From positions 1 to 43,748 of the forward strand of contig CAYFHS010000038.1 in assembly GCA_964342815.1 (NCBI GenBank): a DNA stretch of 43,748 bases, read 5' to 3'. The notes beneath the pieces are model-generated. The model ran no database searches, was not told the origin of the DNA, and worked only from the letters and a program-made list of their open reading frames with translations. This document shows positions 7,005-22,816 of this stretch, piece after piece. Position 1 is the stretch's first letter; each line of letters begins with the position of its first letter. Position numbers and translations under genes: made by a program. The DNA is from an uncultured archaeon. Its GTDB lineage: Archaea > Thermoplasmatota > Penumbrarchaeia > JASLWR01.

Positions 7005-9515
7005 TTAGGAAAATCGTCTTCTCTTGACGATTATCACCATCAGAATGAATATTAAAGCTGATATCATACCAAAGCCGGGAGTATCTTCATCGATCCTCGT
7101 AGTCCCGTTTCCCCCGGGAGCAACAATCTCATTCGTTTGTTTCGTCGGATCGTCAGGATACAGATCGAGGGTCAAACCGGTGGTACTGGAATTTTCATTC
7201 ATCCCCGAATGCCACACGTCCGGATAACCGTCGGTGTCACGGTCCAGGGATGCAGCAGGATCATGGGGGAATGCATCCAAGTGCAGGAGACTGACGGAAT
7301 CTTCCGCGGTGTACCCGGGATTCCACTCATCGGGAAAGCCGTCCTCGTCGGAATCCAGGGATGCGGAAGGATCCTCGGGAAAATCATCGCTGTTATCGCC
7401 CACTCCATCGCTGTCCGAGTCTATCCACTCCGTTGGATTGTACGGAAAAATATCCAATTTCAGGCCAGTGGTGGAATTCGATTCTATTTGACCGGGATTC
7501 CATTCGTCGGGATAACCATCGCTGTCGGTATCTTTACTTGCAGCCGGGTCATTTGGAAAATCGTCGCTGAGGTCAGGCACTCCGTCACCATCGTCATCCT
7601 CATCAACATCATCAGGCAGACCATCTCCGTCTGAATCATAGGCCTGAATGTCGATAACGTTCAGTTTCAATTGTTCGGCAGGGGTGGAGTTCTCCTTTCC
7701 GTCATTGACTTTGACATATATCCATAATTCGTTTCCCATATGATCCACAAGGTCAAGCTCAACCACAAAATAACTTAGTATGGAAAATTTCTGTTCGGTG
7801 CCTTCGAATTTGACTATCAAATAAAGCTCGTCGCCGTCGATATCCGTAGCCACACCCTCAAGCGTCACATTCGGTAGCACGTGATCACCGTATTTCGGTG
7901 AAGATAGGACCAGCTCCGGCGGGTCGTTTACAGGAGTAATATTGACAAAGAACCAATCGCTATTTGTGAAATTTCCGTCACTTACAGTTATCTCCACAAG
8001 CGCGTTTCCAAAATAATTATCAATGGGAATTATCCTCAACACGTCGTTGGTGCATATCACCAGGACATTCTCACCATGCCCGTTCGATGATATGAATACC
8101 GAGAGATATTCATAATTCGTATCGGGATCATCAATATAATTGTAGAGGTAGAGAGCGGCCAATAATGAAGAATCCTCCTCAAGCTCGAAATCGGGAAAAG
8201 CATTTATCTCAGGCGGGAGAGGAACCTTGATAACCGTGACGTATATCTTGTTGCTGAGGGTGGACCCGCCCTTTGCGTCGGTTGCCCTGACCTTCGTGCT
8301 CACAACCCCGTTATATAATTTATTGCAGGTCGTATTGACGGTGAGAAAATAAGAATCGATTATTGAAAAGCACACGTCATCCGGGTGTGAATTGTAGATT
8401 ATCGTGAAGTTCAGTTCATCATCGGGGGTGGTATCGTCCTCGAAGAATTCCCGGAGGTCCGCAAGACGTTTATCGGGGGAGTTCTGGAATGTGGTGAAAT
8501 TGCCAATACCCTGCTCTATAGCGGGTCCTTCGTTACTGGGTTCCATTGTCAATCGAATATTCCTAGGTGCGATAATATTCCATGTGGTGACATTATCCCC
8601 GTAACCCTCTTTCTCCACCGTGAGTTTGAAGGGATTGAAGGTGGTGGGCCCAACCTTCTTGTACATCATCTGGGTCAGTGTTATGTCGGCGGCCTCACCC
8701 CGATCATTCGTAATTCCCTGGAATTCCTTATAGAGATTATTTCTCTCGAAAGTGATTTTTGCGCCGACCATGGGTTCACCGATCAAGTTCTTGACGCTCA
8801 CATCCACCGGCCAGCACCGATATACTTCAGTCTGCGCGTCCTGAATATCGAGAGTATTGAAGTCATAGCTGCCGTTTATGAAGATGACTGTGCACCCGGT
8901 CCCGTTTTTCCCGGAGAGGTACATACTGGGCTCCCTGGCCGCGCCGATGATCGTATCGTTGAAGATAACCGTGGATGCCTGACCGAATAAACTATGATAC
9001 CAGGAATTATTGATGAGGGAATCCTTTATCGTAATATGACTGTTAGCAACTGCCCCAATACCGTACTTGCAGTTATAGGTCAACGAATTTTCAATTAGAA
9101 AGCGGCCTCCATCGCCTCTGACCCCATACCCCGCGCCGTAGATATGGGCGTACCTGATGATACTGTTCTCGCTGTCCGCGTATATATGTATGGAGCCCCA
9201 AGGGTCCTCGTTGGTGGCCCGTTTGAAGGTGACCGGTTCAGCAAAGGTCCCGTTAACCACTATGGTTCCATGCACCCAAATATCGATTCCCCATTCGAGA
9301 GTTATATTCGTTCCAGCTTCTATCATCAACAAGGTCCCTTTTGGAATGTTGGTGTGGCTGTCCAGATAAACGTTACCATTCCACGTTATTGTCGCCCGAG
9401 TCCGTTTGAGAGATGGTGAAGCGGAATGGAAAGGTATCAGTACCGATAAGAAAAGAGCTGTTGTCATCAAAGCAAATATCACACTTTTTATTCTTTCATT
9501 CTGTAAGAGTATCAT
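7005..9515 (-). CDS. Cell-surface protein: signal peptide, right-handed beta-helix, CarboxypepD_reg-like, cadherin/Ig-like domains, thrombospondin type 3 repeats, PGF-CTERM
   Basis: ATG 9515 after CAGGTG SD (track start 9590 is less likely). GTLLMIEAGTNI...PVTF...WGSI (beta-helix), ITPVNDPP (cadherin-like), DSDGDGLPDDVDEDDDGDG, C-terminal TPGFG + hydrophobic helix + KRRR. Confidence 0.8.
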   Translation of the reverse strand: MILLQNERIKSVIFALMTTALFLSVLIPFHSASPSLKRTRATITWNGNVYLDSHTNIPKGTLLMIEAGTNITLEWGIDIWVHGTIVVNGTFAEPVTFKRATNEDPWGSIHIYADSENSIIRYAHIYGAGYGVRGDGGRFLIENSLTYNCKYGIGAVANSHITIKDSLINNSWYHSLFGQASTVIFNDTIIGAAREPSMYLSGKNGTGCTVIFINGSYDFNTLDIQDAQTEVYRCWPVDVSVKNLIGEPMVGAKITFERNNLYKEFQGITNDRGEAADITLTQMMYKKVGPTTFNPFKLTVEKEGYGDNVTTWNIIAPRNIRLTMEPSNEGPAIEQGIGNFTTFQNSPDKRLADLREFFEDDTTPDDELNFTIIYNSHPDDVCFSIIDSYFLTVNTTCNKLYNGVVSTKVRATDAKGGSTLSNKIYVTVIKVPLPPEINAFPDFELEEDSSLLAALYLYNYIDDPDTNYEYLSVFISSNGHGENVLVICTNDVLRIIPIDNYFGNALVEITVSDGNFTNSDWFFVNITPVNDPPELVLSSPKYGDHVLPNVTLEGVATDIDGDELYLIVKFEGTEQKFSILSYFVVELDLVDHMGNELWIYVKVNDGKENSTPAEQLKLNVIDIQAYDSDGDGLPDDVDEDDDGDGVPDLSDDFPNDPAASKDTDSDGYPDEWNPGQIESNSTTGLKLDIFPYNPTEWIDSDSDGVGDNSDDFPEDPSASLDSDEDGFPDEWNPGYTAEDSVSLLHLDAFPHDPAASLDRDTDGYPDVWHSGMNENSSTTGLTLDLYPDDPTKQTNEIVAPGGNGTTRIDEDTPGFGMISALIFILMVIIVKRRRFS
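7148..7637 (-). repeat. Ca-binding TSP3-like repeats; three ~40-aa units D(D/A)FPxDPxASxDxDxDGxPDxW...TTGLxLDxxP
   Basis: Units: DDFPNDPAASKDTDSDGYPDEWNPG, DDFPEDPSASLDSDEDGFPDEWNPG, DAFPHDPAASLDRDTDGYPDVWHSG; the DNA is also visibly similar between units. Confidence 0.85.
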
Positions 9516-9666
9516 GTTTACCACCTGACGGTTAGTGAATATACATGAAATGTGTTTATGTCTTTGATAAAACTTTCCATTAATATTCAAAATTATAAGC
9601 TTCCGTATGCAGCAATGAAATTACCTCCAAAACATTCAAGAGGATTGAATACTTTCGGGCCCGTAA

Positions 9667-10986
<1,320 letters not shown>

Positions 10987-11052
10987 AACCCAAAATGGTG
11001 AGCATTTTCCACCAGAATAAAATAAAAATCAAGTCGTGGATTAATTATTATA

Positions 11053-12966
11053 CTATCCTTTCCGTCTCATTATTATCAGGACCATTATGATTATCATCGA
11101 AAGGACTACTATGGAGATCACCACAATTGGAATTAACGAAATTACCGATCCGCCGGATTCACTCTTCTCCTTTACGGGAACCGCTTTCAGGGAGATATCC
11201 CTGACCACATCCTTTCCATCGACGTTTATAGTGACCGATTTATCCTCATACCCGTCCGAAGAGAATTTTATAACGTAATTACCGTTACCGAGATTTATTG
11301 AATATTTTCCATTATGATCCGTGCGGGTGGTCAATCCTTCCGACGTGAGCTCGACAAACACGTCACGTATTGAATTCCCCGTTTCCAGATCTGTGACGAC
11401 ACCGCTTATTTCATATTCCATTTCGGACGGTTCTGACTTTTCCGCAAGTTGAAAATCCAGTGTAACGTCATCCCCGGAGACCGTGACTGTTGCAGTGGAG
11501 CCAGTATAACCATTTTTTGACGCGGCAACCTCATAAAAGCCCTCCTCCACATACAGCTCGTAAACTCCATTATTATCGGTACTGGTAAAATAACCCCCGA
11601 CATCTGTTTCGACACCCGCCCCTTCAATTCCGCCGCCATCCGCATCATCAGTGACCGTTCCCCTGATGTAATATTTATCCACCAGTCCCGGCCCGGAATC
11701 CTCCTCGAGAAGATAACAAACGATACCCGAACCCCAACCGCAGCCTACAATATCATTTTGGCCGTCATTGTTAATATCTCCAACGGCGATCCCCACCGGA
11801 TCATCATACTCTATCCCCAGATCCAGCTCCTCCCAGGAATAACTGTTGGAATCGGTCATGCTGCCCGAATTGGACCAGACCTCGAGATTGGAACAGATAT
11901 CCAATTTGCCGTCACCGTTCACATCACTTACATCCAGCTGGAAATAATCGCGGGAGCTCGGAAGGCCGGAGCTGACCTCGGTCCACCAAGTGCCCCTGAT
12001 ACCAGAATTGCCGTTACCTAGGTAGGCCCTGATCCCGCCTCTGATGGTGGAAACCAGATCGAGGTGCGAATCTCCGTTAAGATCGATCAATCGATTATCG
12101 AAAGTATTCCCGGTAAGCTTTAGAACCGTGCCGGTATGGCCGTCCGTCCACTTTATGGAGCCGATACCGCCGTATAGATAAACCGTAATGCCCCGGTTGT
12201 CATAGGAACCGGCCACGATATCAAGATTACCGTCACCATCGATATCACCGAGAGTCACCCCGGTATACTCGTTTGAAGTTGGAAGACCGTCGGCCGTTTC
12301 CACCCATGAAAGGCTTTTTCCCGAATGGCTGCCTAACCAGGCATGGAGGCCGTTCACGCTTCCCCCAACCAGATCCATGTGTCCGTCGGCGTCAATATCG
12401 GCACAGTATGCGGAATCATAACTGCCGGAATCCGCAGGCGATTCCGCTTCTTCCCAAACAACGGAACCACCGGCGCCGCCGTTTCCCAGCCATATGCCGA
12501 TCCCATTGGATTCTCCCTCGGACCAATCCGATTCATAGGCTGCCACTATATCCGGATTGGAATCCCCGTCCACATCCACCACCTGGGCGCTGCCGAAATA
12601 ATTATTACCCGGAGCAGGCAGCCCCGAAGACGAATTGATAAAGGTTTTCCCCTCATCATTGAGATAAAGGTAGAGACCGCCGGGGGAACCGCCGGGATAA
12701 CCGCCCGCTCCGGCAACTATATCCAGGTAACCGTCCTTGTTAACGTCACCCAGGGTGACGTAGTTGAACTTCCCGGAGTCAGGAAGCCCGGGTAGTTCTG
12801 CAGTTGTCAGGGACGTACTGTCCCCTGTGGTGGGGTTGAAAAATACTGGAATAAATAAAAACAGCAGTACGCTGCAGGCGAAAAAGGCGATAACTTTTCT
12901 CTTATGTCTACGTAAAGCCTTACCGGGAGTTTTGTTTCCCGTCTTTCCGATCTTTTCTTTTTCCAT
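11053..12966 (-). CDS. Cell-surface FG-GAP 7-bladed beta-propeller + 2 CarboxypepD_reg-like domains + C-terminal TM anchor
   Basis: ATG 12966 after GGTGA SD. Seven GLP...(G/A/I)D(I/V/L)(N/D)xDGxxD repeats; YYIRGTVTDD..GIEGAGV and YEISGVVTDLETGNSI stalk domains; hydrophobic C-terminus ending MRRKG. Confidence 0.8.
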   Translation of the reverse strand: MEKEKIGKTGNKTPGKALRRHKRKVIAFFACSVLLFLFIPVFFNPTTGDSTSLTTAELPGLPDSGKFNYVTLGDVNKDGYLDIVAGAGGYPGGSPGGLYLYLNDEGKTFINSSSGLPAPGNNYFGSAQVVDVDGDSNPDIVAAYESDWSEGESNGIGIWLGNGGAGGSVVWEEAESPADSGSYDSAYCADIDADGHMDLVGGSVNGLHAWLGSHSGKSLSWVETADGLPTSNEYTGVTLGDIDGDGNLDIVAGSYDNRGITVYLYGGIGSIKWTDGHTGTVLKLTGNTFDNRLIDLNGDSHLDLVSTIRGGIRAYLGNGNSGIRGTWWTEVSSGLPSSRDYFQLDVSDVNGDGKLDICSNLEVWSNSGSMTDSNSYSWEELDLGIEYDDPVGIAVGDINNDGQNDIVGCGWGSGIVCYLLEEDSGPGLVDKYYIRGTVTDDADGGGIEGAGVETDVGGYFTSTDNNGVYELYVEEGFYEVAASKNGYTGSTATVTVSGDDVTLDFQLAEKSEPSEMEYEISGVVTDLETGNSIRDVFVELTSEGLTTRTDHNGKYSINLGNGNYVIKFSSDGYEDKSVTINVDGKDVVRDISLKAVPVKEKSESGGSVISLIPIVVISIVVLSMIIIMVLIIMRRKG

Positions 12967-13105
12967 GGGATCACCGTGGACTGGACAAGAGGGGAACGAA
13001 GGGATTTTATATAAATCAATTTTCCATTTTAATTCATTTTTACCGGACGAATCCATCCACGATTTCATGGGTATTTTTTATTTCCATTCCGGTTATATTA
13101 ATAAT

Positions 13106-14515
13106 TTAATTCAGCAATTCCATGGAAGCGGCATCGATCAATTCCCATGCTTCACGCACCTGCTTTTCCCCGGTGGTTCTGGAGCCGATTACCATACGCA
13201 GAACGTACTTTCCCCTGAGACTGGTATGGGTCAAGAATACCTTTCCCGTCTGATTGATCTTTGTCAATAATTCTTCATTGAGGGCATTCAGCTCGTTTTC
13301 ACTTCGCCCGTCGTTCAGGCGGAAACATACGAGGCTGAGGTTCACCGGGGCCATAAGCTCGAAGAAATCATGTTCAGCCACTCTTTTTTGGAAATATTGG
13401 GCAAGGCGAATATGCTCCCGCACCATTCTCCGGAGTCCTTCCAGTCCATAAGAACGGAGAACGAACCATAATTTCAAGGCTCTGAACCGCCGCCCGAGCT
13501 GAATCCCCCAATCCCGAAAATTCCGTACCACCGCATCCTGTCCGGTTCTCAAATACTCGGGGTTTATCTCGAAAGTACGGATCAGGGAAGCCGGATCGGC
13601 AACGAAATAGGCGGAACAGTCAAAATTGGTCAGCATCCATTTATGGGGATTAAAGACGAACGAATCGACGTACTCGACACCATCCAGTATCCATTTCTTT
13701 TCAGGCAGGATTGCGGCCGTCCCCGCAAAGGCTGCATCCACATGGAACCATATGCCGTGTTCACTGCAGATCTTGCCGATATCTGACAAGGGATCCATGG
13801 CCAGCGATGACGTGGTCCCAACGGTGGCAACAACGCAGGCCGGGTGGAAACCCAGCTCTTTGTCTTTCATTATTGCTTTTTCCAGTTCCGAGGGGATCAT
13901 AGCAAAGTTTTCGTCGGTGGGTATGTACCGAATATTATCCTTTCCGTATCCCGCTATCTTCACCCCTTTTTCAACGCTTGAATGAGCTTCTTCCGAGGCA
14001 TATACGACCAGTGGAATTTCGATCCCACGACAGTTTGAATCGAAGTCCGTGGCTTTTTCTCTTGCCGTAAGCAATGCAACCAGTGTTGCCGTTGACGCCG
14101 TATCCTGGATAACCCCCGTCATTCCCTCGGGCAGACCGAGCATGTCCCGAAGCCATTCCATGACGAGCTCTTCAAGCTCCGCTGCTGCAGGAGATGTCTT
14201 CCATACCATGCACTGGGCGCCGAGACCTGCAGTTAATAATTCCGCAAGAATGGAAGGAGGACTGTTATTGGCAGGGAAATATGCAAACCATGAAGGATGC
14301 TGCCAGTGAGTGATACCAGGGATAATATAGTCTTGAAAATCCCGGAAGATGGCTTCCATGGACTGCCCTTCCCGGGGCATCTCGGAAGATAAAGCGCTGC
14401 GAATTTCTCCCGGTTTTACCGGTGAGCAAACCGGATAGGCCTCCATCCCGCCCAGGTAGTCCGCGACCCAATCGACAAATACATGACCGAAACGTCTGAA
14501 TTCTTCAGTATCCAT
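13106..14515 (-). CDS. Aromatic-L-amino-acid decarboxylase (group II PLP, DDC type)
   Basis: MDTEEFRRFGHVFVDWVADY, PGITHWQHPSWFAYFP, SPAAAELE, HVDAAFAG, FNPHKW (PLP Lys), LGRRFRALKLWFVLRSYG. Confidence 0.9.
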   Translation of the reverse strand: MDTEEFRRFGHVFVDWVADYLGGMEAYPVCSPVKPGEIRSALSSEMPREGQSMEAIFRDFQDYIIPGITHWQHPSWFAYFPANNSPPSILAELLTAGLGAQCMVWKTSPAAAELEELVMEWLRDMLGLPEGMTGVIQDTASTATLVALLTAREKATDFDSNCRGIEIPLVVYASEEAHSSVEKGVKIAGYGKDNIRYIPTDENFAMIPSELEKAIMKDKELGFHPACVVATVGTTSSLAMDPLSDIGKICSEHGIWFHVDAAFAGTAAILPEKKWILDGVEYVDSFVFNPHKWMLTNFDCSAYFVADPASLIRTFEINPEYLRTGQDAVVRNFRDWGIQLGRRFRALKLWFVLRSYGLEGLRRMVREHIRLAQYFQKRVAEHDFFELMAPVNLSLVCFRLNDGRSENELNALNEELLTKINQTGKVFLTHTSLRGKYVLRMVIGSRTTGEKQVREAWELIDAASMELLN

Positions 14516-14640
14516 TGAGATTACCTCATTGATATTTGGTTTTATAAAAAGCGGTAAAATAGAATTTCAATCTCTATATTCACGATTCCATTGAAAAGCG
14601 CTCAATATGTTTTAAATAATGTCATGATAATAGCAAATTG

Positions 14641-15567
14641 ATGAAAATATTGATAACCGGCTCATTGGGGTACATTGGGTCAATGCTGTCCGGCTTTTTC
14701 TCTGAAAAGGGAATAGCTGTTGTGGGAGTGGACATAAAGGACAGCGGGAATTCTGAGTTGAACAATTACAAGTTTTACAAGTGCAGCATCCTGGATGAAA
14801 AGAAGCTAAGATATATTTTCAAGCGGGAAAAACCCACCCATGTGATACATCTCGCATATATTTTGAAACCAATGCACAATGGAAAAATGGAAGATGAAGT
14901 TGATCTGACCGGCTCCCGAAACATATTGAGAATATCGAATAAAACCCCATCGGTAAAGAAGTTGATCCTATTCAGTTCCGTGAGCGCTTACGGTGCCAGA
15001 AAGGAGAACCGGTTATGGATAAAAGAAGAGCAGATACTTGCCCCGGGAAAATACAGATATGCTTTGAACAAGAAAAAGACCGAAAATTACTTCAATAATT
15101 TTTCAAAAAGGAATGATCTGAAGATCGTAATCTTAAGAGTTTGTATCGTTGTCACTCCGTCATGCACCAAAAAGAATGGAGCTGTAATGACCATCATTAA
15201 ATCTCCTTTTCTTATAAAAAAGATCAAAAACTTCAGATTTCAACTCCTTCATGAAAATGATATGAATGCTCTTATGGACCGGATCGTGGAAGATGAGACC
15301 ATGGAAGGAACGTTCAACGTGGCGCCGGACAGCTACATTTCCGTTGCTGAACTTTTTCCGGAAAAACGTTATTTGCCGATACCAATTCTGTTTTTAAAAT
15401 TTATAATTGCGATCTTGTGGTCGCTGAGAATATCAAAAATCAATGTGGCGGGTCTGGAATACTGCATAAATGAAATAATCGTAGATCCCTCGAAGTTAAT
15501 AAAAAAATATGGATACAAATTCCAATACACCACACTTGAGGGATTCGAGGATACGGTCTTAAAATAG
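14641..15567 (+). CDS. NAD-dependent epimerase/dehydratase (extended SDR)
   Basis: MKILITGSLGYIG, VIHLAY, FSSVSAYGA, YALNK (YxxxK), GTFNVA; substrate unknown; AT-rich. Confidence 0.8.
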   Translation: MKILITGSLGYIGSMLSGFFSEKGIAVVGVDIKDSGNSELNNYKFYKCSILDEKKLRYIFKREKPTHVIHLAYILKPMHNGKMEDEVDLTGSRNILRISNKTPSVKKLILFSSVSAYGARKENRLWIKEEQILAPGKYRYALNKKKTENYFNNFSKRNDLKIVILRVCIVVTPSCTKKNGAVMTIIKSPFLIKKIKNFRFQLLHENDMNALMDRIVEDETMEGTFNVAPDSYISVAELFPEKRYLPIPILFLKFIIAILWSLRISKINVAGLEYCINEIIVDPSKLIKKYGYKFQYTTLEGFEDTVLK

Positions 15568-15684: not shown

Positions 15685-15731
15685 GTGATTTCAGCCGAAT
15701 TCTCAGGTGAAAAATAATTCCAGGTGAATCG

Positions 15732-18425
15732 ATGATAAAAATAAGTGATTCTACAAAAAAACATTCAATGAAAATATTGCTGGGTCTGATCATTTTGATA
15801 ATGATGGGCTCAATAATGGCAACTTCCGCAACCGCACAGGATGCAACCGACGATGCAAGCACCTTTGGGATCGATAAGATATTCTCCATCACTGATGAGA
15901 AAAATCCCGAAGTAGAGGTTAGCAAGGATAGTCCGATAATGCTGGTTAACATGGCAAAACCGGTTAGATTCAAGGTCAGCTTTCAACCCGACCGGGCAGC
16001 TGTTGCCGACCCGGATGTTGATATTACGGAGCCTAGCGGAAATGAAAATTACAGAATCGTATTCGAAGTTACGAACGGAGCCGATTGGAATATTACCTGC
16101 ATCATGGACGGAAACATTCAGCTTAAACACGAAGCCGTGGATTTTTATCTAACAGACAGCAGCCTAGCGAGAAGCGGTGAGGAGATCGCCGGAAAAGAGC
16201 TGATCTTCAGCCTTGCTTCCGGCGAAAAGATAGAATTCACAATCGAGGTGCAACCCCTTTCAAGCGTATCGCTGGGGGACCGGGTGGAGGTCGAAATGTC
16301 AGTATTCGATAATTCAGGTAACCTGGACTCTACTGATTCTGCGCAGTACGAGGGAGACCTTGCAGTGGAGATATCCATGAAAGATAAGCTTCCGTGGGAA
16401 ATGTATATTGGATTGGGCGCTGCCGTGATAGGCCTTTTATTCGCCTTTTACCTGAGGAATATGGTAATGAAAAAGGACAGGGGAAACGAAGAAGTGGTGA
16501 AAATATCCGATCACATCCATAAGGGCGCCATGGCCTTCCTGAACAAGGAATACCGTATACTGCTATTTTTTACATTGGGTGTAACAATAATTCTTCTCGC
16601 CGCGGCCAGATTTACAGATGAAATGAGTTATTTGACTGCTTTAACATTCGTAATAGGTGCAATCTTCTCGGCCATAGCAGGCAATATTGGAATGCGAATT
16701 GCCACCGCAGCCAATGGAAGGACTGCCACGGCGGTTCAGAAAAAAATGATTTCCGGCCTCAGGATCGCTTTTTCCAGCGGGGCCGTCATGGGACTCACCG
16801 TTGTCAGCCTCGGTTTACTTGGAATCAGCATTTTCTACATAATCTTCAATGATCCAAACATACTCTTCGGATTCGGATTCGGTGCTTCCTCAATAGCACT
16901 GTTCGCCCGTGTAGGCGGCGGAATATACACAAAGAGCGCCGACGTGGGAGCGGACCTGGTGGGAAAGGTGGAAAAGGGAATACCCGAGGACGATCCCAGA
17001 AATCCGGCTACAATCGCCGATAACGTGGGTGATAACGTGGGAGATGTGGCTGGGATGGGAGCCGATCTTTTTGAATCATACGTCGACTCAATTATTGCAG
17101 CAATGATACTCGGTCTTGTGGGAGTGATGGGAGCCAATGGTGTTTTCGATCTTGGCGGCGTGGCGGGAAAGGCGGTTCTGCTTCCCATAATTATCGCAGG
17201 TATTGGTATTATATGTTCCATAATCGGGGTTGTTATAGTCAACAGTTCATCGGAGAAAAAAGAACCACACAGCATACTGAACACCGGGATCTTCGGTGCC
17301 GCCATACTTCAGAGCATCGCTTCATTCCTTGTGATCAGGTTCTGGATGGGATCCGATTATTTCGGCATCTGGGGTGCTATGATGGCGGGACTGGTCTCTG
17401 GTGTTGTCATTGGTCTTATCACGGAATATTATACCTCTGACGAATTCAAGCCCACCCGCGGTATATCAGAAGCATCGAAAACCGGACCGGCAACAAATAT
17501 AATTGCCGGACTGTCATTAGGAATGTTCAGCACTGTGATACCGGTGGTCATGGTATGTGTAGCTCTCGTGTTCTCGTACTGGCAGGCGGGACTTTACGGT
17601 ATCGCTCTGGCAGCGGTGGGTATGCTGTCCACCCTGGGGATCACCCTTGCCACCGATTCCTACGGTCCCGTAGCGGATAACGCCGCAGGTATCGCCGAAA
17701 TGGCAAAAATGGGCAGCCAGGTTCGGGAAAGAGCGGAGAAACTCGATGCCGTGGGTAATACAACAGCGGCTATTGGCAAAGGTTTCGCCATCGGCTCAGC
17801 CGCTCTAACCGCTCTCGCATTGTTCTCCACTTACACCCAGGCCACCCACCTGTCATTCGGAAGCTTATCTCTTATGGATCCGCTGGTGATAACCGGTGTG
17901 TTCATAGGGGCTTTGCTGGTATTCCTCTTCTCGGCCCTTACCATGAATGCAGTGGGCAAGGCTGCAATGGCAATGGTGGAGGAGGTTCGAAGACAGTTCA
18001 GGGAGATCAAAGGTCTTATGAAGGGAAAAGCGGAGCCGGATTACAAAAAATGCGTGGATATCGCCACCGGTGGCGCCCTAAAACAGATGATATTCCCATC
18101 GCTTCTTGCTGTAGCAGCTCCTGTGATAGTGGGTCTGGCCCTGGGCCCGGCAGCATTGGGCGGACTTCTGGGAGGCGCTGTTGTGGTGGGTTTCCTTATG
18201 GCGATTATGATGGCCAATTCCGGCGGGGCCTGGGATAACGCAAAGAAGTACGTGGAAGCGGGAAATCTGGGAGGCAAGGGATCAAATGTGCACAAGGCCG
18301 CGGTGGTGGGTGATACCGTGGGTGATCCGTTCAAAGACACATCCGGCCCGGCACTAAATATTCTCATCAAGCTCATGAGCATAGTTTCCCTGGTATTTGC
18401 TCCGCTGTTCCTGCTTCTTCACTAA
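15732..18425 (+). CDS. hppA: K+-dependent, probably Na+-translocating membrane pyrophosphatase with a ~220-aa N-terminal extension (signal peptide + extracellular domain)
   Basis: [55 protein letters not shown] (Ala/Gly = K+-dependent signature), [28 protein letters not shown]; CAGGTGA SD before ATG 15732. Confidence 0.95.
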
Positions 18426-18484: not shown

Positions 18485-19759
18485 ATGGTAAGATTGTGTG
18501 GAGCTTGCAGCAGGGCATTCAGGATTCCGTACCGCATGATGTTATTATGGTGTAAAGAAGAAAAAATGTATGTGTGTCAGCATTGCTGGACCAAACATTG
18601 CGGCGAGGGGCATGCAAGGGGTGCAAAAAATATAGGCAAAAATCCCCTGGTTTTATTTTATATAGCAACGATTATCGCTTCTTTTGTACTGCCATTCTCC
18701 CTTTTAGGCTGTTATAATTATTACGTGAAGTATGAATGGAGCTCTCTTGAAAGTACGGATGTTGTCAACATTACTGGCGATAGGCTTTTCAGGTTGGAAG
18801 GATTCATGAACGAGAGCACCGATCGCGTGATCTTTCCCCCCGAGAAACTTTCAAATAAAAATGAAAATAATTTCATATTCAGCGATTCTACGGGTTCTGT
18901 GCAGGCCAGAACGGATCGGTACATGGAAATAGAGAAAGGTCCTCACGCTATTCGCGAAGGAGGTAACAAGGCGGAGAAAGTCTACAAGGGCGGAGATGAG
19001 GTCATAATCATCGGAAAGCTGGTGGAGGGTAAAAAGAATTTGACTTTGCAGATAATATGGATGGGTACGAACGAAGAGGACATTCCTCCCTTATATCCGT
19101 TGGCCGCGTTGAGCATAGGTAGTGTTGCACTTTATCTTCTTGTTTGTTTTTTCGTAATGATCCTTTGCATCTATCGTGGCTGGGAACACGACGGATCTAA
19201 AGTAAGCAGGATTGAGGTCCCGATTACGGATATGGATAAACCCAAACCCGACGATCTGGACTGGTATGATCTTAGGTCATTCTGGGTTAAGCAGGGTAAT
19301 AAACCAATTTTTACTTACAAGAGGGGTGGTCAGATTCTGAAGATAATATGGATCCTGGTAGTTCTGGGGTTCGCGATAATATACTTGTACGTCGATCCTT
19401 ACAGAGTAAATGACTTTATCTATTTCTCTGCTTATGGATTATTGGTTTTTCCCATACTAGTCATTTCTACCGGCGTTTATTTCAATCGGAGTATACTGAG
19501 TCCCAGCGATTTCGCAATGTCTCAAAAGGGTGTTCATATGTACTACGAGGAACCCGTCGAAAGGTTCCTGACATATGATTTCCTTGCATGGAATGATATA
19601 AAAGGGTTCTACAAATTTCGAGCTGGGAGGAGCGTGGAGTGGAAAATAATCAAGACAAACGGTGTCAAGGTGGATATTAATTTTCTAGGGGCTGAAAACA
19701 GGGATACTGTCATAGGAAAATGGAAAAAGATGACAAAAAAGAAACTTAGAAAAAAGTGA
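18485..19759 (+). CDS. Hypothetical membrane protein: N-terminal Cys/His Zn finger, TM, OB-fold-like domain, ~3 TM, PH-like C-terminus
   Basis: CGAC...C...CQHCWTKHC...H; FSDSTGSVQA...GDEVIIIGKL; hydrophobic segments; MSQKGVHM...LAWNDIKGF. Confidence 0.6.
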   Translation: MVRLCGACSRAFRIPYRMMLLWCKEEKMYVCQHCWTKHCGEGHARGAKNIGKNPLVLFYIATIIASFVLPFSLLGCYNYYVKYEWSSLESTDVVNITGDRLFRLEGFMNESTDRVIFPPEKLSNKNENNFIFSDSTGSVQARTDRYMEIEKGPHAIREGGNKAEKVYKGGDEVIIIGKLVEGKKNLTLQIIWMGTNEEDIPPLYPLAALSIGSVALYLLVCFFVMILCIYRGWEHDGSKVSRIEVPITDMDKPKPDDLDWYDLRSFWVKQGNKPIFTYKRGGQILKIIWILVVLGFAIIYLYVDPYRVNDFIYFSAYGLLVFPILVISTGVYFNRSILSPSDFAMSQKGVHMYYEEPVERFLTYDFLAWNDIKGFYKFRAGRSVEWKIIKTNGVKVDINFLGAENRDTVIGKWKKMTKKKLRKK

Positions 19760-19789: not shown

Positions 19790-22700
19790 TCATCCCCATT
19801 CCACTCCATCATTCCACCGGTCATCATCATCATCGAACCCATAATCGGATTCCAACGAACCTTCATCATACCGCGGATCATCAGCGGCATTATAATCGTA
19901 TGAGCTAGACCTTCGCGAAGCTTTGCGGGGTTTTCTCCATTCATCAACCATTTCCTCGGGGAGAGAAGAAAATCTTTTTTTCATTTTACCCCTCAGGACC
20001 AGAAAGATCACTAGCAAAGCAAGTAAAACCACCACGAGACCGACTATCAAAAGTCCAAGACCAAGGACACTGGAACCCTGCTCGTTCGCATTACTGTCCG
20101 GTTCCTCCACCGATTTACCAACTAGAGTAATAATCGGAGAAAGGACGTGGGCCTCGTCGGTTCCATCGGATACCGTGATCCTGACTTTATATCGACCTTC
20201 CCTTTCCCCTTCCATCGACCATTCCCATGATCCCGCCTCCCAATTGAGATCACTAGCAAGAGTTTTTATGACGTTCATCTCCCCATCCAGAAGTTCGAGG
20301 GATATTAGCATCGAGTCTCCATCCGCATCGTGGGCGGTCCACTCGATTTTATATATTTGGGGTATTGCCTCATTGGAACTGATAGCCTTTATGGTGATGG
20401 TAGGGGGTGTGTTGATTTTTGGCAAGTCCGGTTCCGACACGTTCTCCGGTATAGCGATCATCACGACGGTATCCTCGGAGGACCTGGCGCCCACCTCGTC
20501 CGCCACAACCAGTGTGATGACGTAGGTCCCGGCTTTTAAAGGGCGGAAGCTGGGGGTGGAAGAATTCTCATTTTCAAATAACAATGACGGATGGGAAGTG
20601 CAGTTCCAGTCCCAGGTCGTGATGTTGCCGTCCTCGTCGAAGGAATTGGTACCATCGAGGACCACTGTTTCATTTACACGTATCATCCGATCCTCTCCGG
20701 CATTTGCCACGGGCCGTTCGTTCACGTAAATCGGTTTTTCGAGAACGGTAACATTAACAACATCGGAGTTGTATGACCAGAATTCCATCTCGTCCATGAC
20801 CCTCAGAGTAAATACGTATACTCCTGACATCCGCGGTACGAAATAAGGAGTCGAGGAATTCGAATCGTTCAATACCACAGCATGGCTTGTGCAGTTCCAA
20901 TCCCACGCAAGAATTTTACCTTCAGTATCCCACGACCGGGAGCCGTCAAGGTCCACCCTTTCCATGGTGTATGCGGTAACGTCCCCTCCGGCGTTAGCAA
21001 TAGGGGGTCGGTTCACTTCTATCACTGTAATGTTAACCTGGCTTTCCTCAGACCAGGCGCCCTGATCATCCCTAACAACCAAAGTTAAAGCGTATATCCC
21101 CGGCATCGTGGGCGTAAAAGTCGGGGATGATGAGTTTTCGTTGATAATGGGAAGGGTCGGGTGAGAAGTGAAGTTCCAGTCCCATGTGATTATTATTCCG
21201 TCGCCGTCCCATGAGCTGGAACCGTTCAAGGTCACCGATGTATTTGAATTACAGGAATAATCCAATCCGGCATTAGCGATTGGTCTGAGGTTTGCCGGAG
21301 GGTTCGCGGTTATGTTGACAACATCCTTCCAAAGACTCCATTTACTGGAATTGTCCCTCACTCCAAGCTCGATAACGTACTGGCCTACGACATCTGTCAA
21401 TATGGATGGATTTACAGAGGTATCATCAGACAGTTCCGCCACGCTCCCTGGAGGTTTCGAGACAAATGCCCAGCTGTAATCCACGATGGTCCCGTCGGGA
21501 TCGCTGCTGCCGGAAGCGTTCAAGTAAACGGTCTCTCCCACGGTAACCGTCAGGTCGTTTCCAGCGTCAGGAACCGGTGGTCTATTGAAAGACGTCATAT
21601 CGTTGAGGTATACCTCGACTCCTATGGACGAACTTGAAGACAGACTTGAATCGGATACGATGATATCCAGATCTCCATCGTTGTCAACGTCAGTCATAAA
21701 GGAACCCGAATAGGCACCTGCTGTGGGAAGCCCCTGGGTGTACCTTGTCCAGTCACATGCTCCTCCTGCACCGCCATCGCCAAGATACAGCTTCACACCG
21801 TTTCCATCCATCTGACCTGTGAGGAGATCGATATTTCCATCGTTATCCACGTCCCCAGTGGCGATCTGGCCGTGAGTGGCGAAATTTGGAAGACCCGAAC
21901 TGTTCGATTCCCACTTCATGGTTCCTCCGGCCCCGCCGTTTCCTGTGAATATATAAATCCCATTCTGGCCGCTTGACACTATATCGTGGTTTCCGTCATT
22001 GTTCACATCAGTAATATTAATACTGTGATATGTACCGCTGCCGGGGAGACCGGAAGAGGCGGAATTCCAGCCAGTGCCGCCGTTTCCCAAGTAAGCTTTA
22101 ACTCCCGAGTCGGAACCGGCTACAAGATCCGTATTACCATCCCGGTTCAGATCTCCAAGGCAGATACCATAATGTTCTCCATTTGAGGGGAGACCTGTGG
22201 ATGCAGGAGTCCAGGAACCGCCGCCGTTTCCTAGCCAAACCTCAATCCCACTTCCTTCACCTGCAGCGGCAATATCAATGTCGGAATCCGAATCGACGAA
22301 ACCCATATCAACCGCCAGGTACGATCCCGTGGAAGTTGGGCTATTCCCGGACGTCCACGTGACCGTGGGACCCCCGCTTGAGAGCCAAATACCTATACCG
22401 GTTGTGGATTCCACGGAATATCTCGTCTCGTAGGGACCCACGATATCATCCGCCCCGTTGCCGTCTATATCACCAATGGCAATCTGGCCGAATGCGCCTT
22501 CGTCGGGAAGTCCGACGCTGGAATTCGTCCAAGAGCCAGCCCCATTGACATTTAGCCATGCGCCCATACCAGCACCAGCTAAACCATCCCGTGGGAAAAG
22601 ACCCGAGGCAATATCTGGCTGATTATCGTTATTGAACAGGCCAAGTCCTACAGTAACGTAAACTCCCGTATCGGGGAGGCCTGTGGATGATTCGGTGAAA

Positions 22701-22816
22701 CCTGAAAGTGCCCTGGACCGGTATTCGACTTTGATCCCAGCACTCATGGGCAGAAGGATTAATATCAGCGTACCGATAACTAGAATGGTTTTCAATTCGA
22801 GCCGTTTTTTCGTCAT
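19790..22816 (-). CDS. Cell-surface FG-GAP 7-bladed beta-propeller + 4 PKD-like domains + Ig domain + TM + acidic cytoplasmic tail
   Basis: Signal peptide MTKKRLELKTILVIGTLILILLPMSAG; seven GLP...GD.N.DG..D units; NRPPVPDAG, NLRPIANAG, NRPPIANAG, NERPVANAG; TM VLGLGLLIVGLVVVLLALLVIFLVL followed by RGKMKKR. Confidence 0.85.
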   Translation of the reverse strand: MTKKRLELKTILVIGTLILILLPMSAGIKVEYRSRALSGFTESSTGLPDTGVYVTVGLGLFNNDNQPDIASGLFPRDGLAGAGMGAWLNVNGAGSWTNSSVGLPDEGAFGQIAIGDIDGNGADDIVGPYETRYSVESTTGIGIWLSSGGPTVTWTSGNSPTSTGSYLAVDMGFVDSDSDIDIAAAGEGSGIEVWLGNGGGSWTPASTGLPSNGEHYGICLGDLNRDGNTDLVAGSDSGVKAYLGNGGTGWNSASSGLPGSGTYHSINITDVNNDGNHDIVSSGQNGIYIFTGNGGAGGTMKWESNSSGLPNFATHGQIATGDVDNDGNIDLLTGQMDGNGVKLYLGDGGAGGACDWTRYTQGLPTAGAYSGSFMTDVDNDGDLDIIVSDSSLSSSSSIGVEVYLNDMTSFNRPPVPDAGNDLTVTVGETVYLNASGSSDPDGTIVDYSWAFVSKPPGSVAELSDDTSVNPSILTDVVGQYVIELGVRDNSSKWSLWKDVVNITANPPANLRPIANAGLDYSCNSNTSVTLNGSSSWDGDGIIITWDWNFTSHPTLPIINENSSSPTFTPTMPGIYALTLVVRDDQGAWSEESQVNITVIEVNRPPIANAGGDVTAYTMERVDLDGSRSWDTEGKILAWDWNCTSHAVVLNDSNSSTPYFVPRMSGVYVFTLRVMDEMEFWSYNSDVVNVTVLEKPIYVNERPVANAGEDRMIRVNETVVLDGTNSFDEDGNITTWDWNCTSHPSLLFENENSSTPSFRPLKAGTYVITLVVADEVGARSSEDTVVMIAIPENVSEPDLPKINTPPTITIKAISSNEAIPQIYKIEWTAHDADGDSMLISLELLDGEMNVIKTLASDLNWEAGSWEWSMEGEREGRYKVRITVSDGTDEAHVLSPIITLVGKSVEEPDSNANEQGSSVLGLGLLIVGLVVVLLALLVIFLVLRGKMKKRFSSLPEEMVDEWRKPRKASRRSSSYDYNAADDPRYDEGSLESDYGFDDDDDRWNDGVEWG
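20455..21586 (-). repeat. Four tandem PKD-like domains (~95 aa each)
   Basis: Recurring NxP(P/I)ANAGxD...LxGSxSxDxDGxIxxWDWNxTSHP...PTFxP...GxYxxTLxVxD; three copies share DNA such as cagttccagtccca. Confidence 0.8.

Follow-up and report, generated by a model that had tools for sequence, protein, structure and literature searches.

An N-terminal extracellular domain, led by a putative Sec-type signal peptide, is a new architecture for membrane pyrophosphatases (mPPases), a family whose core is well known. It is encoded in the window (the whole stretch of 43,748 nucleotides analysed here) by the ORF at positions 15732-18425 of the forward strand, whose 897-residue product (P0001) consists of three parts: a signal peptide, an all-beta domain, and an mPPase. 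The long form of the protein and its conservation, as predicted from the sequences, are hardly in doubt, and the role which we propose for the domain, that of a passive, fast-evolving, non-catalytic module near the cell envelope, is put forward tentatively; for the explanation as a whole, i.e., fused architecture and passive envelope role jointly, we estimate a probability of about 0.55. The gene and its parts are located as follows:

15723-15727, forward strand: GGTGA, Shine-Dalgarno-like, 4 nt 5' of the ATG (read directly)
15732, forward strand: start codon ATG (read directly)
15732-15836, forward strand: putative Sec-type signal peptide, aa 1-35 (pattern read directly)
15837-16394, forward strand: predicted extracellular domain, aa 36-221, ~186 aa, pI ~4.1, ~9 beta-strands
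16083-16097, forward strand: D-W-N-I-T motif, aa 118-122 (joint alignment A5, 26 sequences)
16116-16208, forward strand: stretch of the ectodomain under the strongest constraint, aa 129-159 (sliding-window dN/dS 0.04 against the same-genus ortholog)
16377-16379, forward strand: ATG inside the reading frame (Met216), 7 nt behind a GGAG, a candidate start of a short isoform (read directly)
16395-18422, forward strand: mPPase core, aa 222-897, from TM1 to the C-terminus (Pfam PF03030, NF001960)
18423-18425, forward strand: stop codon

The source is a marine archaeon of the Thermoplasmatota, and the gene is the only one for an mPPase found in its genome, which comprises 4.35 Mb at 89% completeness. 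The core of the product is matched by Pfam PF03030 (H_PPase) at aa 232-889 (E 5e-273, 908 bits against a cut-off of 29.7 bits, profile positions 1-645 of 645) and by NCBIfam NF001960 (sodium-translocating pyrophosphatase) at aa 224-895 (957 bits against a cut-off of 546 bits). The same full-length core family includes the Na+-PPase of T. maritima (4AV3) and the H+-PPase of V. radiata (4A01), against which aa 222-897 gave E-values of 2e-161 and 3e-166, respectively. The catalytic aspartate and lysine motifs of the hydrolytic centre and the coupling funnel are all present and agree with those of the V. radiata enzyme in the alignment, and all 200 columns that are invariant among 23 orthologs are kept in P0001. 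Two further motifs, G-N-T-T-A-A with the alanine of K+-dependence (position 12.46) and D-L-F-E-S with a glutamate at the gate position 6.53, were read in the sequence in line with published residue rules for the mPPase subfamilies (Ala 12.46, Glu 6.53; PMC6882861), and an aspartate at 6.57 is found in P0001, too. Judged by these matches and residues, the core is a complete K+-dependent mPPase with an intact catalytic centre, and the ion pumped is probably Na+. The enzymes of T. maritima and V. radiata begin a few residues before TM1, whereas in the window protein TM1 is preceded by a signal peptide and a predicted folded domain of ~186 aa; residue 24 of the T. maritima enzyme pairs with residue 235 of the query, so that ~215 residues are truly additional.

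At the 5' end of the gene, the first-pass annotation had described an ORF behind a strong Shine-Dalgarno sequence, a Sec-type signal peptide and an acidic domain rich in beta-strands, and the sequence agrees with this description, including the peptides that it had quoted. The putative signal peptide begins with a basic n-region, continues with a hydrophobic core and leads to an A-T-A/Q-D junction at aa 33-37, the small residues at -3/-1 (A-T-A) preceding Q36 of the 897-aa protein. In favour of the start at 15732, the first ten residues are conserved in the metagenomic relative P0002, and most of them also in P0007, an ortholog from the same genus; the alternative start Met13 is replaced by leucine in P0002. 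In the solved mPPases (Kellosalo 2012, Lin 2012), the N-terminus reportedly lies on the non-cytoplasmic side, an orientation under which the fusion is topologically coherent, as had been proposed. The N-terminal segment might alternatively stay uncleaved as a signal anchor (TM0), which would result in a 17-helix protein with the ectodomain as its large first extracellular loop; this is compatible with the long hydrophobic core (~17-20 residues), with a helix modelled by AlphaFold2 (AF2) over aa 7-33 and with the 15-17 helices mentioned for mPPases (PMC6882861), but in the window protein, as in nearly every class member, the hydrophobic core is followed by small residues at -3/-1 and a polar acidic stretch, an arrangement typical of cleaved signals, and we consider an anchor unlikely. 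With a cleaved signal and with an anchor alike, the domain would be extracellular.

The claim that the domain is fused in frame to the pump is borne out by the absence of any stop up to the first helix at ~aa 222, by the full-length HMM matches and by the dN/dS values. Neither a stop codon nor an indel, which the first-pass annotation had regarded as fatal to the fusion, was seen before position 16377, and gene calls on NCBI, ENA, JGI, and Logan assemblies arrived independently at the identical 897-aa product or at near-identical ones of 897-898 aa. In P0002 (897 aa), the ectodomain is 61-64% identical without any gap and the pump ~97% identical. In three pairwise comparisons, dN/dS was 0.22-0.42 for the ectodomain versus 0.025-0.036 for the pump, a difference of about tenfold; by this measure, the extension is coding sequence under purifying selection, though at roughly a tenth of the strength that acts on the pump. 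Such rates could also stem from an arms race, in which the domain would mask the conserved outer pump loops from viruses or surface-binding agents or would itself serve as a receptor, and which would explain the fast divergence. The tenfold higher dN/dS of the ectodomain and the loss of sequence similarity between families with retention of the fold-type pattern are in keeping with this idea, but no sliding window over the ectodomain exceeded a dN/dS of 1 (maximum 0.63), no virus or defence context is found near the gene, and relaxed constraint alone explains the rates, which makes an arms race very unlikely.

An internal start had been pointed out as a possible origin of a short isoform. The ATG at 16377 and its GGAG are indeed present, and the caveat proved weak, as methionine at the position of Met216 is confined to the window's genus in the alignment and the other families have no methionine near TM1; a minor short form, limited to that genus, might still be produced. 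It could further be argued that the short form from Met216 is the only one and that the upstream frame is untranslated, which would turn the extension into an annotation artefact. In favour of this, the ATG at 16377 lies 7 nt behind the GGAG, and PGAP has called a product of 682 aa for a same-genus ortholog (MDP6155721.1), although the contig carries a frame of 898 aa; yet the frame upstream of Met216 is open, free of indels and under purifying selection, it begins with a predicted signal peptide in ~30 genomes, most class members have no methionine near TM1, and the long form is obtained with other gene callers, so that an artefact is scarcely credible. MDP6155721.1 is annotated from the internal methionine, by which the domain is hidden in public annotation. 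Start calling guided by homology drops the domain in this way, and mPPase fusions of this type are probably under-counted in the databases as a consequence of such domain-removing start calls.

When mPPase homologs were inspected for the extension, as had been suggested, it turned out to be a trait of a Thermoplasmatota class and not a one-off. With the N-domain as query, a homologous fused domain was detected in each of the three remaining genomes of the GTDB family, which represent three genera (4/4 including the window's), the matches being situated in long frames with a signal peptide at the front, followed by the domain and then the mPPase; the same query had no match among another 57 genomes drawn from the class and the phylum. 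A search with the mPPase family across 37 genomes of the class yielded full-length mPPase frames which are essentially all 828-944 aa long, and in at least 27 of these genomes TM1 is preceded by a signal peptide and an extension of 150-240 aa. This holds for the families f1 (the window's), f2, f4, f7, and f8, in which a signal peptide and 152-238 acidic, beta-patterned residues are located ahead of TM1. A hydrophobic segment, whose mean KD over 12 aa is 2.3-3.3, is found at the N-terminus of all extended class orthologs and is followed by a small-residue site. The mPPase of genome G007 (family f5), which belongs to the same class, begins directly at TM1. Among 201 genomes sampled across the phylum, the extensions of the enzymes outside the class measured 0-47 aa; long frames in G071, G063, G145, and G086 were recognized as spurious GC-rich frames. 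The one genuine extended mPPase found outside the class is P0024, an enzyme of the K+-independent type from another Thermoplasmatota class, which has a signal peptide and a domain of ~110 aa with a sub-threshold CARDB match (E 0.004); hhalign revealed no relation between this domain and those of the class, for which reason it looks like an independent fusion. Relatives encoding the domain as a separate gene, which had been named as evidence against a fusion, did not turn up in a search for stand-alone homologs of 98-371 aa. A full HMMER search of 1.84 billion representatives returned one further fused mPPase only, the paralogue cluster P0004 (868 aa), in which ectodomain and helices are kept and 58 of the 200 otherwise invariant pump residues are lost, including catalytic aspartates. 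Three long repetitive Ig/fn3 proteins from the same search are regarded as compositional matches. With alignment A2, the only related locus found was that of a same-genus MAG from the Eastern Tropical North Pacific titled 'Thermoplasmatota archaeon'. Taken together, the predicted proteins establish that the fusion is conserved across essentially the whole class.

Whether the domain was acquired once or several times was approached by comparison of ectodomain profiles and by a maximum-likelihood tree of the pump cores. The profiles of f7 and f2 match with probabilities of 79-95% and those of f4 and f8 with 52-85%, and the ectodomain of f1 reached 25% in hhalign against those of other families (P 7.5e-4 over 91 colinear columns, with P 0.03-0.07 for reversed-sequence controls), which is only suggestive of homology. 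The tree unites f1, f4, f2, and f7 in one clade (support 83/79), all members of which are extended and whose sister is the unextended family f36, and it places the extended enzyme of f8 outside this clade on a long branch. The parsimonious scenario is that the domain was gained once, long ago, and then diverged rapidly; given the position of f8, this is not proven.

The ectodomain gave no sequence match in Pfam, NCBIfam or PDB, only insignificant hits of Ig type or to antibodies; in Pfam, there was no match for aa 1-230 at E<=0.1 and no recurrent family among 26 class ectodomains at E<=1. Two AF2 models of modest confidence, calculated from 6 sequences (pLDDT 58) and from 26 sequences (pLDDT 66), agree on ~9 strands within residues 46-214 (46-53, 69-71, 78-85, 105-114, 119-125, 155-161, 167-175, 184-194, and 206-214); aa 130-153, which lie inside the constrained stretch 129-159, were modelled at a pLDDT below 50. 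Structural searches with these models led to generic Ig-like sandwiches: Foldseek E-values were ~5e-5 at low TM-scores (0.25-0.34), and the top Z of VIA-align was 8.7 over 100-140 residues, a level which the tool rates as common for generic arrangements. The matches comprised pilins, Ig domains of PADI and integrins, CatSper stem domains, RhoGDI, and TTHA1873. The domain had been called Ig/NEW3-like, and of this label the Ig-like part agrees with the structural matches and the NEW3 part does not hold, as no Pfam match exists. CARDB and NEW3 domains (PF07705, PF10633), which occur in archaeal and bacterial surface proteins, do resemble the domain in size class, in the all-beta pattern and in a central strand motif with Gly/Asp-Trp, but neither the window domain, which the family HMMs do not place among them, nor its 25 class relatives match these or other Pfam families significantly. 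The domain is best called a predicted Ig-like beta-sandwich without assignable family.

In the alignment of 26 ectodomains (A5), W119 within D-W-N-I-T is the only near-invariant residue, the columns kept besides it being hydrophobic, and no polar, ligand-binding or metal-binding motif is conserved class-wide. The N-I-T sequon is conserved only inside the window's family, and N-glycosylation as a common trait was ruled out, sequons not being enriched across the class. The other secreted proteins of the window are equally acidic (pI 4.1-4.3), and the acidity of the ectodomain as a special cation antenna was likewise dismissed as non-specific.

A similar module is found on an unrelated transport protein of the same phylum. 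In f36, the gene located directly downstream of the mPPase gene encodes an MscS channel with a signal peptide of its own and an Ig-like ectodomain of ~100 aa, which follows the same modular plan (export signal, Ig-like ectodomain, polytopic ion-transport protein) but differs in the membrane family. Comparison of the MscS and mPPase ectodomains by hhalign resulted in a probability of 52% over 32 columns and 32% over 79 columns, which weakly suggests homology. Among 97 predicted polytopic proteins of the window's genome, 17 have a hydrophobic segment at the N-terminus that is separated by a long stretch from the helix after it, and some of these proteins belong to transporter families with built-in outer loops.

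In the mechanism which we propose, the Sec signal peptide would export the acidic Ig-like sandwich of ~186 aa, which is joined to TM1 (modelled by AF2 as a helix at 222-248) by a linker of ~7 residues, and after the predicted cleavage, each protomer of the pump dimer would bear the domain on the extracellular face directly above TM1 in the outer helix ring. At this place by the cell envelope, the ectodomain would have a passive and structural role; it may shield or stabilise the short outer loops of the pump or place the pump relative to the surface layer, and it would take no part in PPi hydrolysis or ion-coupling chemistry. Four observations argue for a passive role: conservation is confined to W119 and hydrophobic columns, without any polar or metal-binding motif throughout the class; the acidity equals that of the other secreted proteins of the window; other polytopic membrane proteins of the phylum, such as the MscS channel of f36, bear similar N-terminal Ig-like ectodomains; and the catalytically degenerate paralogue P0004 retains the domain. 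Retention over deep divergence points to a selected function, which a passive role leaves unspecified.

The first-pass annotation had suggested that the domain could tether the pump to the envelope, sense an external ligand or ion, or cap the exit channel. The ectodomain could instead be a regulatory cap or sensor, packed on the loops around the ion exit channel, where it would tune pumping allosterically to external ions or a ligand or limit back-leak. On their extracellular side, mPPases are open to allosteric control, since an inhibitor bound to loops 6-7, 8-9, and 12-13 locks the T. maritima enzyme, and coupling is affected by the width of the exit channel (PMC6882861); moreover, the linker of ~7 residues forces the domain to sit on the pump, and aa 129-159 are constrained as strongly as the pump itself. 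This stretch could be a specific contact site, as is more readily expected of a regulatory than of a passive module. On the other hand, TM1 is a helix of the outer ring and the exit channel is formed by helices of the inner ring (PMC6882861), no polar or ligand-binding residues are conserved class-wide, and the domain diverges between families beyond simple sequence recognition, whereas the pump loops stay conserved. A cap or sensor has a minor share in our estimate, and its most specific version, a built-in extracellular regulator whose loop at aa 129-159 touches the loops of the exit channel and makes PPi-driven Na+ transport respond to external ionic or ligand conditions, must be called doubtful; if true, extracytoplasmic allosteric control would be known in mPPases for the first time, and the class-wide retention of the domain would be explained. 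A predicted complex of pump core (A6) and ectodomain (A4) scored 0.00, which is uninformative either way.

In reviews, mPPases are described as single-domain subunits of 70-81 kDa with 15-17 helices (PMC6882861), and the only extra domain reported, according to a review of 2024, is a C-terminal OmpA-like domain in some mPPases of Burkholderiales (PMC11210485). The first-pass annotation knew of no characterised mPPase with a domain like that of the window protein, and this agrees with the open-access literature, in which we found no mPPase described with an extracellular domain at its N-terminus. The OmpA-like domain of the Paucibacter/Burkholderiales enzymes is likewise an envelope-facing add-on (PMC11210485), given that the C-terminus of mPPases is also non-cytoplasmic, but it is attached to the opposite terminus, is bacterial, has an OmpA-like fold of the peptidoglycan-binding type and needs no signal peptide. 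A two-domain form that is found lineage-wide contradicts the textbook view of mPPases as simple single-domain primary ion pumps. As mPPases are also studied as drug targets, the passive envelope module proposed here, or whatever else the domain may be, provides a natural system for probing the role of the extracellular face of the pump, which is already relevant to allosteric inhibitors. Similar modules are borne by an MscS channel and by P0024, which belongs to a second, unrelated subfamily of mPPases, and they point to a general equipping of transporters with envelope-facing domains in this phylum.

In the same-genus ortholog of the window's membrane pyrophosphatase (mPPase), the ectodomain is concealed by the start call in NCBI: the product MDP6155721.1 (locus L007, contig JASLWR010000021.1) comprises 682 aa and begins at the internal methionine, despite an intact 898-aa frame that includes the signal peptide. 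In one genome of family f7 (G035), two extended mPPase genes are present, which are separated by about 34 kb and whose open frames encode 875 and 885 aa, respectively:

contig C7, 198668-200635, + strand, extended mPPase gene
contig C7, 234263-236230, - strand, extended mPPase gene

Within the pump of the window, the gate helix was read directly from the sequence:

window 17064-17087, + strand, gate helix D-L-F-E-S-Y-V-D (aa 445-452)

This helix carries both a glutamate at position 6.53 and an aspartate at position 6.57, and therefore the transported ion, judged by sequence, may be Na+, H+, or both; the rules relating gate-position residues to the ion specificity of mPPases have been tabulated (PMC6882861).

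An 868-aa mPPase paralogue (P0004, P0011, and P0012) was encountered on ENA metagenome contigs. It has kept the signal peptide, an ectodomain of the type found in the window's own family (f1), and the helices, and has lost 58 of the 200 columns in which 23 mPPases show no variation, several catalytic aspartate and lysine positions among them. It is probably a pseudo-enzyme with the ectodomain still attached.

Downstream of the window's mPPase, a cysteine-rich membrane protein, for which Pfam gave no match, is followed by a convergent surface protein gene:

window 18485-19759, + strand, Cys-rich membrane protein, 424 aa
window 19790-22816, - strand, FG-GAP/PKD surface protein, 1008 aa

Since in another genus (L065/L066), too, a small gene (8828-9595) precedes a gene for a giant FG-GAP surface protein in convergent orientation (9902-14745), the gene order 3' of the mPPase may be conserved between the two genera.

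In family f36, the sister of the extended clade, whose own mPPase is unextended, a gene for an MscS-family mechanosensitive channel lies immediately 3' of the mPPase gene in the same direction, an order kept in three genomes (the third locus being L063):

L062, 199-1653, + strand, MscS-family channel gene
L064, 2617-4062, - strand, MscS-family channel gene

This channel has a signal peptide of its own, and its Ig-like ectodomain, about 100 aa long, includes a Gly/Asp-Trp strand motif.

In another class of the same phylum, one genome (G055) encodes a further extended mPPase:

L059, 1083-3560, - strand, mPPase with N-terminal CARDB-like domain, 825 aa

It is of the K+-independent type (lysine in the G-N-T-T-K-A motif), and TM1 is preceded by a signal peptide and a CARDB-like domain of about 110 aa, the Pfam CARDB match of which (E 0.004) is below the cut-off. 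This protein appears to be an N-terminal Ig-like fusion of independent origin.
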